From assembly GCF_000026545.1 (NCBI RefSeq), contig NC_011601.1: a DNA stretch of 64,000 nucleotides. One strand, given 5' to 3'. A program made the position numbers. Source of the stretch: Escherichia coli O127:H6 str. E2348/69 (GTDB lineage: Bacteria; Pseudomonadota; Gammaproteobacteria; Enterobacterales; Enterobacteriaceae). Shown one piece after another: positions 27,001 through 30,000 of the stretch. Positions within the stretch are counted from its first letter, which is position 1; every line of letters starts with the position of its first letter.

Positions 27001-30000
27001 CCGTCAGTAACCAGTGGGCGGTGGCCTGAATTAATCCCGCCATATTTACCGCGTGGCTAAGGGTTAACGGGGTATCCATCACCCGAACTTCCACCGTGCC
27101 AAAATGAGGACTGGGGCGAATATCCCAGTGCAGATCTTTAATGCTGTCGATCATCGTGGTGTAACTCAGACAGCGAAACAGGGCTTCAAATTGTTGCCAG
27201 TTACTGACCCACGGCATCGGGCCATTATCAGGAAAGGCGGAAAAAATATTCGGTCGTGAGGAGGCAAAACGCGTATCCGTTCCCTGCATATATGGCGACG
27301 CGGCGGAAAGGGCGATAAAGTGCGGCACAAACCGTGACAAGCCGTGCAGCAAATAAATGGCGTCATCGCCACTGGCACAGCCAACATGGACATGCTGACC
27401 AAAAACGGTCGCCTGCTGGATGAGATAGCCAAAGTTTTCCAGCGTTCGTTGATAGCGTTCGTTATCGCATACCTCCTGACGCTGCCATTTCTGAAACGGG
27501 TGCGTGCCACCGCCGCAAATTTCCAGATGATGGTCTGCGGCTGCCTGCAATACGACTTTCTGCATCGCTGAAAATTGCCCGGCAGCCTGGTTGATATCAC
27601 GGCAAACATCCGTCGCCAGCTCCAGCATACTTTCGGTGATATCGTGCTTTACCTCTCCGGCCGTGATCTTATTTTTAACTGCGTCAATCAGCATTGATGA
27701 GTCCTGGCTTAAGTCATAGCCCGGCGGATTAACCACCTGCATTTCCAGTTCAATACCGAGGGTAAAAGGTTCAGAAACATGAAAATCGGGTAATGGCATA
27801 GGTTTCTCTTATGTTGGCGTTTTCTATTCAGTATAGAAGTGGGAGCGGCTGGGTGAGATGCGAAAGTTCTGGAATGTTTCTTTTTTTTGGTGATGGTGAA
27901 CTGATGGTGACTGAAGAAGTTTGGCTACTTTTGCAATGTGACAAGTTATGGCAGAGCTGGCTGGTGGCGAAGAATTTTGACGATTGAGGCATGCAGAAAA
28001 AAACGGGTTCAGCTTCAGTTGATCAAATGGGGAGTGAGAAGTCCGAAACAGGACTTACTGTATAAATAAACAGCCATTTTGCTAAGCAAGGGTAAGATAA
28101 CGGCGGGTGCCTGAAGCTTTCCGGTTTCAGGTTTACTCTGAGGTCTGGAAAGATGAAGCCCCAGGAGATATTTCTATCAATCCTGGGGCTGCCACTCCAA
28201 ACCCAAACAATTTGGATGGTAGTCCCTTCTTCGCATGGAGGCAATATAAACATGCTGACGAAATATGCCCTTGCGGCAGTCATAGTGCTGTGTTTGACGG
28301 TGCTGGGATTTACGCTTCTGGTCGGAGACTCGCTGTGTGAGTTTACGGTGAAGGAACGTAATATTGAGTTTAAGGCTGTTCTCGCTTACGAACCGAAGAA
28401 GTAGCCGTTGTGCGGGGAGTAATCCCCGCATATCCGGTTGTCAGGTCAGGATGGTAAGGCACCTGCTTTACACTTTCGCCCGCAGTCAGAGATGGCTGCG
28501 GGCGAATCGTACCAGATGTTGTCAATTAATCGTGTTGGCACAGCGTTATGACTATTTTTTCTTTTATCTGCCAGTGCACAGCAAACATCTCATTCTCACG
28601 ATGAATTATGACCTGTTGTTTATTCCGGCTAATTATCTGATAGTCCAGAAAATCTGCATCAGTTTGTCTTTCACATGCCTTAAATGCGCCCTCTTTGGCG
28701 GAAAATGCCAGTGTCAGCGCCAGAGAAAAGGTTAAACCGCATTCTGCGAGTCGCTCGTGTTCTGCTGGTGTAATAATGTTGTCTGTCAATTCTCTTGCGG
28801 TTTGTGCAGAGAAAATCTCTTCAATATCAATGCCAATCGGTTGACGGGAAACCACGGCTAATGCCGTAGTCCCACAGTGACTAATGCTGCCGTATACACC
28901 CGCAGGCCACACAGGTTGGCGTAGCTCGCCGATTGCAGGCACACATTTATAGCCATATTCCCGCAGCGCATAAATTGCAGCGATCCGCCCGGCTAAATGC
29001 TCTGTTTTACGTTTACGTCCAGCGTGTTGAAGTTGTGCGTAGTGCGGCAGCCAGAGTAAATCCTGCTCGCGAAAACTCGCCGGATCAAACTCAACAAAAT
29101 GCAGCGTATGTCCTGCAAAGGGGAGGGAGGTATGCGTAGTTTTCATGTCAACCATATTAGAGAATGATGACAAACGCAAAACTGCCTGATGCGCTACGCT
29201 TATCAGGCCTACGTGGTCCTGCAATATATTGAATTGGCAAGATTTTTGTAGGCCGGATAAGGCGTTCACGCCGCATCCGGCATGAACTACGCGCACTTTG
29301 TCAACAATCTGACGTTAGCTTCAGAAGTGAGTATTAATGCTCATATACCACGTACGTCCCGGCTCGTTATAGGTATACGCCCCGGCACCTGCGATATAGT
29401 TGGCTCCTGCCAGATCGCCCGTGGTCTGGGCATTACCCGCACGCCACAAACGTTTGTCGAACAGGTTGTCCACGCCGCCGGTCAGACTGACATTCTTGGT
29501 CACATCCCAGGTCGCGCTCAGGCCAACAATGCTGTACGGACTGATTTCTTTGGTTTCCGGTCCAACCGCTGGCTGACCTTTATAGTTGTACTTCTTCGGC
29601 TGCTGTTTGCCGTACCAGGTGAAGGTCGTTTGCATCGACAAATCTTCCCGTGCCTGCCAGCTCAGCGTTGAGTTCAACGTATACTCCGGGATGATCGACA
29701 AACGGTCGCCCGTGGTTTTGTTTTCACTCTTCAGCATATAAGTGATGTTATTGGTCCACATCACCGTTTCGCTAACCGGTACGTTTAACGATCCTTCCAG
29801 ACCTTCAACCACCGCTTTCGGCACGTTATCCCACTGATAGAGATCGGTGCCGACTGCGTTTTGCCCTACAGCCACATAGCCCGCTTCAATCTTATTGCGA
29901 TAATCGTTACGGAACCAGGTCACGCCCGCCAGCCAGCCGTCGCGTTTGAACTCCAGACCAATCTCCTTGTTGATGCTGGTTTCTGCTTTCAGGTCATCAT

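Follow-up and report, generated by a model that had tools for sequence, protein, structure and literature searches.

The hokE/sokE locus of Escherichia coli O127:H6 E2348/69, a type I toxin-antitoxin locus free of IS186 and probably in its ancestral configuration

Introduction

The closest described relative of the locus treated here is the hokE/sokE system of E. coli K-12 (b4415/b4835), reportedly the subject of work by Pedersen and Gerdes in 1999. In K-12 MG1655 a copy of the insertion sequence IS186 (IS186B, 1345 bp, 608007-609351) lies between hokE and entD. Two other K-12 systems, hokC/sokC (gef) and hokB/sokB, share the architecture of hokE, and hokC is likewise interrupted by IS186 (copy IS186A), in the homologous hairpin GGCGGGGAGTGATCCCCGCC. 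However, hokC and hokB, whose mok frames are annotated as mokC and mokB, still have the GAGG-led mok AUG that hokE lacks.

The hok/sok system of plasmid R1/IncFII resembles hokE in its Hok/Gef toxin, in an antisense promoter that occupies the homologous site within the leader, in the pairing of a 5' tac with a 3' fbi (fold-back inhibition) element, and in its post-stop and terminal hairpins. On the other hand, hokE has no mok start led by a Shine-Dalgarno (SD) sequence, its leader is of 149 nt against 168 nt in the plasmid, its terminal hairpin lacks a U-rich tail and there is a LexA box upstream; it is also chromosomal, and a role in plasmid maintenance is not expected. The layout of tac, post-stop hairpin, fbi, terminal hairpin and Sok promoter is found in IncFII hok/sok and in K-12 hokC and hokB as well. 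A blastn search of the hokE mRNA against plasmids gave only chromosomes mislabelled as plasmids and one Klebsiella locus; plasmid hok is too diverged in DNA, and its sequence was therefore obtained by a protein search.

The type I systems tisB/istR-1, dinQ/agrB and symE/symR are similar to hokE in that the LexA box is on the toxin gene only, with a constitutive antisense sRNA (PMC2826370), but they belong to other toxin families and use other RNA mechanisms. hokE has been listed as a LexA-box gene with a heterology index of 4.9 (PMC11228462; PMC2826370). Unlike the SOS-induced type I toxins, however, it showed no SOS induction in a 2024 K-12 dataset, with a 0.47-fold change under AZT (PMC11228462), and the published K-12 induction data contradict each other (PMC2826370 vs. 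PMC11228462).

Results

The window, by which we mean the whole stretch of 64,000 nucleotides that was analysed, matches its source, E. coli E2348/69, at 100%. Within it we find what is probably the chromosomal hokE/sokE type I toxin-antitoxin locus of this strain, in an uninterrupted, ancestral configuration (Table 1). A first reading made from the sequence only had described a complete 50-aa Hok toxin, and this is borne out by the open reading frame, by the Pfam profile HOK_GEF (PF01848; 32.1 bits against a cut-off of 22, residues 5-46) and by RefSeq, which names the frame hokE and gives its product, WP_000956455.1, the same accession as the identical HokE of K-12. Both the profile and the small size (ca. 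50 aa) place the protein in the Hok/Gef toxin family. The distance to entD, given earlier as about 120 bp, is 121 bp (entD stop codon at 28526-28528).

The 50-aa frame is unbroken in all of the 21 related loci, which come from six genera, and the median dN/dS is 0.17. Judging from these comparisons it is under purifying selection, in favour of function. The GGAGG of hokE is invariant across 22/22 loci, and so is the CTTACGAA motif around codon 46 in 22 loci.

Table 1. Features of the hokE/sokE locus of E2348/69 (positions in the window)
Feature	Position	Strand	Remarks
LexA (SOS) box TACTGTATAAATAAACAGCC	28056-28075		overlaps the -35 region of the hokE promoter
hokE promoter, putative -10 TAAGAT	28093-28098	+	no good -35
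Full-length hokE mRNA, predicted	28103-28506	+	both ends predicted
tac element GCGGGUGCCU	28103-28112	+	mRNA 5' end, pairs with fbi
SokE antisense RNA, 60 nt	28149-28208	-	transferred from K-12 RefSeq sokE, 607733-607792
SokE promoter	28216-28244	-	-35 TTGCCT 28244-28239, 17-nt spacer, -10 TACCAT 28221-28216
Leader AUG	28216-28218	+	in the hokE frame, 62-aa product if used; no SD
hokE Shine-Dalgarno GGAGG	28237-28241	+	10 nt 5' of AUG; read from sequence
hokE CDS	28252-28404	+	intact frame, 50 aa plus stop
hokE codon 46 (TAC, Tyr) within CTTACGAA	28387-28389	+	reported A-to-I (TadA) site, Tyr to Cys
Hairpin 1 (post-stop stem-loop)	28409-28432	+	10 bp, GUAA loop; GGGG-N6-CCCC core is the IS186 site in K-12
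fbi element AGGCACCUGC	28457-28466	+	between hairpins 1 and 2
Hairpin 2 (terminal stem-loop of hokE transcript)	28475-28506	+	14 bp, GAGA loop, no U-tract
entD	28526-29146	-	convergent neighbour of hokE
Differences from K-12, transcribed part	28181, 28205, 28296		28296 synonymous

The locus shares with K-12 its location between ybdK and entD, the SokE region, the core of the LexA box, the leader, the hairpins and fbi. Over 28103-28426 there are only three substitutions, leaving the protein unaffected, and two further differences fall in the outer positions of the LexA box. The other difference is the insertion sequence. That K-12 carries IS186 just 3' of hokE had been stated and is correct; a K-12 without the element would have spoken against the reading, but the breakpoints of IS186B map to the hairpin 1 loop, where the duplicated target is approximately GGAGTAATCC. 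Hairpin loops of the form GGGG-N6-CCCC host all three of the K-12 IS186 copies. In the window the alignment has no insertion at the IS186B site, as had been claimed. In K-12 IS186 has entered the loop of the first stem-loop, a match to its preferred GGGG-N6-CCCC target, and cuts off the reading frame from fbi and the terminal stem-loop. As nothing is separated in E2348/69, the RNA-level circuit is, by prediction, structurally complete there.

This state is not peculiar to E2348/69. The junction between hokE and entD is uninterrupted in 3641 out of 5426 complete E. coli genomes (ca. 67%), while IS186 is present at it in roughly 27-34%. In addition, ca. 45% of the complete genomes carry hokE in tandem, an estimate that combines extra copies of the segment of fbi and hairpin 2 with an evenly spaced sample of the ranked matches. 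A megablast search with the junction of the tandem copies found only 554 genomes, a number kept low by the divergence of these junctions and unsuitable as a count of tandems. In other words, IS-free hokE is the common wild-type condition and nothing special, and the locus is real but ordinary, since most natural strains carry the uninterrupted form. Other strains with an IS-free hokE are already on record (PMC7232551), and so are wild strains with duplicated copies.

The predicted full-length hokE mRNA takes its 5' end from the point where the match to Rfam RF01794 begins (28105), together with a conserved GCGGGTGC motif, and its 3' end from the terminal stem-loop. Its predicted fold has a minimum free energy (MFE) of -180.5 kcal/mol (z = -7.96). 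The MFE and centroid structures both contain a tac-fbi helix of 10 bp, whose pairs have probabilities of 0.93-1.00, so that the long-range pairing expected of the hok family is present in the predicted fold. The six core pairs of this helix can form in 19/19 distinct related sequences, and the fbi core GCACC is kept 42-52 nt past the stop codon in most loci. Taken alone, the energy of the tac-fbi duplex is not significant, being matched by 38 of 300 shuffles, and neither is, for most loci, that of tac against the 3' UTR when compared with shuffles. Covariation in the helix amounts to four cells with compensatory change, indistinguishable from controls, which makes the count uninformative; hairpin 1 was left out of this count, where MAFFT misaligned the group with short loops.

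Two stable hairpins had been noticed between hokE and entD. They do exist, each shifted by one base from the coordinates first given: GCGGGGAGTAATCCCCGC occupies 28412-28429 and CGCCCGCAG...CTGCGGGCG 28477-28504. Hairpin 1 folds with -18.5 kcal/mol (z = -5.5) and hairpin 2 with -27.7 kcal/mol (z = -7.7), and in both cases 0/200 shuffles fold as well. Their interpretation as the fold-back elements themselves has to be amended. A 3' fold-back apparatus is present, but fbi is neither of the hairpins; it is the tract between them that pairs with the 5' end of the mRNA. Hairpin 2 was not called as a terminator, nor was anything else, in a consensus scan of 27750-28600.

A consensus scan of 27750-28600 found no promoter with at least 9 of 12 matches, and that of hokE is therefore probably weak; for the same reason the promoter assignments rest on homology and conservation. 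A TAnnAT motif lies at a fixed distance from the motif of the mRNA 5' end in 19 loci. Upstream, CTG-N10-CAG has a single match in the region, with a 16-nt core identical to that of K-12, and this LexA box has been kept in Escherichia, in some Citrobacter, in two Klebsiella species and in Phytobacter.

The antisense partner is covered by a match to the Rfam sok family RF01794 (85.7 bits against a gathering score of 59), and SokE is predicted to fold into a hairpin preceded by a single-stranded 5' tail and followed by a U-rich one. Its start site, read from the sequence, would be 28208, 7 nt beyond the -10. The promoter stayed under the threshold of the consensus scanner; it lies at the position of TTGCGC-N17-TATCCT in plasmid hok/sok and is conserved across 21 loci. 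A cis-encoded antisense Sok RNA with a promoter of its own is thus recognizable at the level of the sequence only.

One element of the family is missing. At the position homologous to the mok start, 28185-28198, the sequence reads GGGGCUGCCACUCC and contains no SD-led AUG or other start codon, and hokE has no overlapping SD-led mok frame. In the hok/sok design Sok blocks the translation of such a frame, on which that of hok depends. The absence holds for 6/6 Escherichia hokE loci, E2348/69 and K-12 among them, whereas GAGG-N8/9-AUG supplies a mok start at this position in hokB, hokC, plasmid hok, K. pneumoniae, K. oxytoca and K. michiganensis. The sequence-only reading, which held that the locus may be fully functional, had named a defect in the mok/hok coupling region as an argument against this; a defect of that kind is there, but it is lineage-wide and not specific to the strain. 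The only mok-like start candidate is the leader AUG at the complement of the Sok -10 box. An 83-aa in-frame ORF from the ATG at 28153 was considered as mok and rejected, as 1-nt indels break its frame in other hokE alleles. Without an SD-led mok frame, translation in Escherichia hokE must use either the GGAGG of hok or the in-frame AUG that has no SD.

Discussion

How such a locus might work can be proposed along the lines of its relatives. The weak promoter under the LexA box would give an hokE mRNA of roughly 400 nt; its 5' tac would be clamped to fbi and, by analogy with plasmid R1 hok, the full-length RNA would be untranslatable and unreactive. A stronger convergent promoter within the leader would produce the 60-nt SokE, which may pair with the leader and trigger its destruction after the 3' trimming of the mRNA. 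Members of the family typically have a stable mRNA whose 3' end is processed slowly, an unstable Sok RNA and a duplex that RNase III cleaves, and their toxin, once expressed, kills the cell or arrests it.

The most serious alternative, although on balance we find it somewhat improbable, is that the locus is intact in sequence and yet silent. With no SD-led mok, the native transcript would essentially never yield HokE, and the presence or absence of IS186 would then hardly matter. This would fit the distribution of the SD-led mok AUG, which hokB, hokC, plasmid hok and three Klebsiella species possess but none of the six Escherichia hokE loci does, and also the behaviour of K-12, in which hokE was not induced by SOS (PMC11228462) and the deletion of hokE together with five other SOS toxins gave no persistence phenotype (PMC8406316). 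Nevertheless, a frame intact in 21/21 loci at a dN/dS of ca. 0.17, behind an invariant GGAGG, is hard to square with a peptide that is never made. Besides, the K-12 hokE mRNA is produced and undergoes ca. 40% A-to-I editing (PMC12214031), and the negative phenotypes all come from K-12, an IS carrier. The HokE coding sequence is reported to be toxic when overexpressed (bioRxiv 10.1101/2025.08.07.668861). Against function speaks that the IS-free chromosomal hokA and hokC, as the same preprint summarizes, gave no post-segregational killing. A literature search for hokE expression in pathogenic strains turned up nothing useful.

A more ambitious proposal would be that Escherichia hokE is a mok-less, LexA-gated variant of hok/sok whose natural IS-free alleles are working SOS-inducible toxin modules. 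We consider this speculative and unlikely. If it were true, the phenotype would have been missed because the functional tests were all done in K-12, where the mRNA is cut from its fold-back element.

The uninterrupted single copy could also be a secondary state, left behind when a tandem hokE pair collapsed or when IS186 was precisely excised. Tandem copies exist in nearly half of the genomes, as seen above, and precise IS186 excision has been reported from the lon promoter (PMC3861542). However, neither a scar nor a duplicated target is found at 28416-28426, and a single copy directly before an entD-type flank is also found in E. albertii and in another Escherichia species, which makes this history distinctly unlikely; in any case it would leave the identity of the locus unchanged.

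Finally, the idea that the hairpins are not parts of hokE at all, but an entD terminator or generic REP-type intergenic palindromes, has in its favour that hairpin 2 sits 20 nt past the entD stop codon, that its minus strand also folds (-23.4 kcal/mol) and that REP-like elements occur close by, between entD and fepA, but we reject it as very improbable indeed, since Citrobacter loci that have a transporter and an SDR gene as neighbours in place of entD still retain the pair together with hok, each hokE copy of the tandem strains has its own pair, homologous hairpins follow hokC, hokB and plasmid hok, a U-tract is absent from both strands and Rfam gives no REP match at these positions.

We are left with the reading of an intact hokE/sokE locus, probably in its ancestral form. 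The locus itself, its disruption by IS186 in K-12 and the IS-free and duplicated copies of wild strains are all in the literature already, and the importance of the finding is modest. It does carry one practical caution for workers on hokE: claims of an inactive gene, or of one with neither an SOS nor a persistence phenotype, rest on the K-12 type of allele, which represents only about one third of the complete E. coli genomes.

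The hokE Locus and Its Relatives

The 731-bp interval that contains hokE matched E2348/69 at 100% in a sequence search, and the RefSeq gene order around it is ybdK, hokE, entD, fepA. The sequence-only reading had described a complete toxin gene of 50 aa at about 120 bp from entD, and both points hold. The frame is intact, its product matches the Pfam family HOK_GEF with 32.1 bits (cut-off 22) under an accession common to this strain and K-12 (WP_000956455.1), and the spacer to entD, whose stop codon lies at 28526-28528, measures 121 bp. The coordinates of the features are collected in the table.

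Features of the hokE locus (window coordinates)
Feature	Position	Strand	Description	Basis or note
LexA box	28056-28075		TACTGTATAAATAAACAGCC, overlaps the missing -35 region of hokE	16-nt core identical to K-12
hokE promoter	28093-28098		TAAGAT, conserved, 5-7 nt 5' of the conserved GCGGGUGC motif	putative
sokE	28149-28208	-		mapped from the K-12 RefSeq sokE feature
Leader AUG	28216		in frame with hok, 62-aa product, no Shine-Dalgarno	complement of the Sok -10 box
SokE promoter	28244-28216		TTGCCT-N17-TACCAT, start site 7 nt on at 28208	predicted
hokE CDS	28252-28404	+	50-aa protein
Hairpin 1 (post-stop)	28409-28432		10 bp, GUAA loop	-18.5 kcal/mol, z = -5.5
Hairpin 2 (terminal)	28475-28506		14 bp, GAGA loop	-27.7 kcal/mol, z = -7.7

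When one genome was scanned for each species, 21 hokE-type loci (L009-L029) were recovered from Escherichia (five species), Citrobacter, Klebsiella, Phytobacter, Pluralibacter and Enterobacter, all 21 with the 50-aa frame intact. The median pairwise dN/dS of hokE among these relatives is 0.17, and therefore the peptide is under purifying selection. Invariant among them are also the hok ribosome-binding site GGAGG and the motif CTTACGAA around codon 46 (TAC; 28385-28392), a reported site of A-to-I editing by TadA that converts Tyr46 into Cys and affects ca. 40% of the hokE mRNA in K-12 (PMC12214031). Nucleotide conservation is strong over the final 40 nt of the reading frame, which suggests a constraint acting on the RNA. 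A partial match (HokE residues 31-49, 95% identity) was found in a low-coverage, 2.3-kb contig (L030) of the marine Marinobacter sp. B9-2, probably a contamination by E. coli.

Structure of the hokE mRNA

When the RNA 28103-28510 was folded (-180.5 kcal/mol, z = -7.96), a closing helix of 10 bp joined 28103-28112 (GCGGGUGCCU) with 28457-28466 (AGGCACCUGC) in both the MFE and the centroid structures, each pair having an ensemble probability of 0.93-1.00. As modelled, this helix is the hok-family interaction between the 5' end of the mRNA (tac) and the 3' fold-back-inhibition element (fbi). The plasmid hok/sok system has the same closing helix and the same order of stop codon, hairpin, fbi and terminal hairpin, and both can be read likewise in hokC and hokB of K-12. 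The six core pairs can form in all 19 distinct hokE-type sequences. The energy of the duplex taken alone was equalled by 38 of 300 shuffles, and among the 19 sequences only 4 cells had a compensatory change, inseparable from controls; the support for tac-fbi therefore comes from conservation of sequence and position together with thermodynamics, and not from covariation.

Two hairpins 3' of the gene had been proposed earlier as the fold-back elements. Both do fold, and none of 200 shuffles folded as well as either, but they really lie one base to the right of where they had been placed; a 3' fold-back is indeed present, formed not by the hairpins themselves but by fbi, which stands between them. 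That hairpin 2 might be part of entD can be discarded, as Citrobacter loci that have a transporter and an SDR gene as neighbours keep it together with hok, and each hokE copy of tandem-copy strains repeats it. By these comparisons hairpin 2 belongs to hokE.

Antisense RNA, Promoters and mok

The Rfam sok model (RF01794) covers 28105-28260 with 85.7 bits (gathering score 59). SokE is predicted to be a 60-nt RNA that begins with a 5' tail of 19 nt, continues in a strong hairpin and ends in a tail that reads UUCAUCUUU, and at the position matching its promoter the IncFII plasmid hok/sok has TTGCGC-N17-TATCCT. For hokE itself no convincing -35 was found, and a consensus scan of 27750-28600 returned zero promoters and zero terminators. 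The LexA box, absent from the sequence-only reading, is conserved in some members of the hokE clade and lacking in the K. pneumoniae, K. oxytoca and Citrobacter FP75 group; hokE has been listed among the LexA-box genes with a heterology index of 4.9 (PMC2826370; PMC11228462). On the minus strand at 28015-28283, opposite the hokE leader and start, the PGAP annotation has a hypothetical protein of ~89 aa that overlaps sokE, is marked as frameshifted in both E2348/69 and K-12 and had no Pfam match; it is probably an annotation artefact.

Four of the hok-family features looked for are found at the locus (toxin, antisense RNA, tac-fbi and 3' hairpins), but a canonical mok, the overlapping frame upstream of hok, is not. 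In hokC, hokB, the plasmid locus, K. pneumoniae, K. oxytoca and K. michiganensis, GAGG is followed 8-9 nt on by an AUG, which in the R1 model opens the mok frame under the control of Sok. At this position all six Escherichia hokE sequences, the window and K-12 included, have GGGGCUGCCACUCC and no start codon, and the Shine-Dalgarno-led start is also absent from most Citrobacter and Phytobacter relatives. This absence is old and lineage-wide, not a lesion of E2348/69. Nearly universal among the relatives is a leader AUG at -32 to -36 (28216 in the window, where the mok site and this AUG together span 28185-28218), which yields an in-frame extension or, in other genera, a 12-codon frame ending in AUGCUGA that overlaps the hok start. 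A longer in-frame ORF from the ATG at 28153 is not credible, as indels break it in other alleles. The purifying selection on hokE argues that the peptide is in some way still produced.

IS186 and the K-12 Allele

The IS186 copy of K-12 named in the sequence-only reading was confirmed: in MG1655, IS186B (1345 bp, 608007-609351) sits between hokE and entD. When aligned, the insertion falls within the hairpin 1 loop and has duplicated a target of ~GGAGTAATCC. From the mRNA start to the insertion point the window is identical to K-12 except for three differences (28181, 28205 and the synonymous 28296). IS186A lies next to hokC in the homologous hairpin GGCGGGGAGTGATCCCCGCC, and IS186C in a GGGG-N6-CCCC hairpin 3' of nupC (the nupC terminator), so that all three K-12 copies are in loops of G4-N6-C4 stem-loops (588-1932 in locus L007, 1508-2852 in L005 and 774-2118 in L034). 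Hairpin 1 thus combines two roles, as a conserved element of hok mRNAs and as a preferred IS186 site, a hotspot that explains why two hok paralogues, hokC and hokE, are disrupted at the same place. A target consensus for IS186 was reportedly published by SaiSree et al. in 2001, and the K-12 sites are in keeping with the existence of one.

Frequency of Intact, Tandem and Interrupted Alleles

A probe of 86 nt that spans the IS186 site found the IS-free junction in 3641 of 5426 complete genomes; the K-12 hokE::IS186 junction occurs in at most 1871, some of these matches really being hokC::IS186. IS-free hokE is the majority state of E. coli and already known, having been described, with its duplication, in strain NRG857c (PMC7232551); duplicated hok "islets" have been described too (bioRxiv 10.1101/2025.08.07.668861). 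Among 30 hits sampled at even steps down the ranking, 6 were single and IS-free like the window, 13 tandem, 8 of IS186 type, 2 cut at ~28185 and 1 other. The fbi-hairpin 2 segment was found at 7979 places in 5409 genomes, from which we estimate that ca. 45% of genomes have more than one hokE copy.

Three strains were confirmed to have tandems with a period of ~502 bp, their hokE/sokE units being 97-98% identical (L002 3200-4250, L031 2942-3597 and L032 2938-3593). The repeat unit corresponds to 28004-28505, with a separate LexA box, leader, pair of hairpins and fbi in every unit, and the tail is U-richer (GGGCGAUUUCGUUUUAC) after the first copy than after the entD-proximal one. E2348/69 has a single copy. 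In strain XD35 (L004, 3886-7386) IS150 cuts the hokE leader at ~28185, and behind it come a truncated IS5-family transposase gene, then CTX-M-14 and ISEcp1, so that the hokE locus of this strain has received a resistance gene.

Other Features of the Window

Palindromes of the REP/BIME type lie between entD and fepA (29205-29311), where Rfam ES036 scored above and naRNA4 below the gathering score. For E2348/69, RefSeq gives the O-antigen chain-length regulator wzz(fepE) (37321-38454, plus strand) as a pseudogene that contains an internal stop. A tRNA (RefSeq tRNA-Arg, 3914-3987) adjoins fragments of a frameshifted integrase and of tail-fibre assembly (~4000-5000), which are a decayed prophage; in K-12 this site is occupied by DLP12.

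Is hokE Functional?

In favour of function stand the RNA architecture, complete in the window as modelled, the conserved peptide, the toxicity of the HokE coding sequence when overexpressed (bioRxiv 10.1101/2025.08.07.668861) and the expression and editing of the K-12 mRNA (PMC12214031). Against it stand the lack of induction of K-12 hokE by AZT (PMC11228462), the lack of a persistence phenotype in a six-toxin deletion that included hokE (PMC8406316) and the absence of the canonical mok frame. The negative data on hokE do not settle the case of the window allele, because all of them come from the IS186-bearing allele of K-12. The observation made in the sequence-only reading is confirmed, and its interpretation finds support in part. 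What remains is a modest and testable question, namely whether an IS-free, mok-less hokE may be a working toxin module linked to the SOS response.
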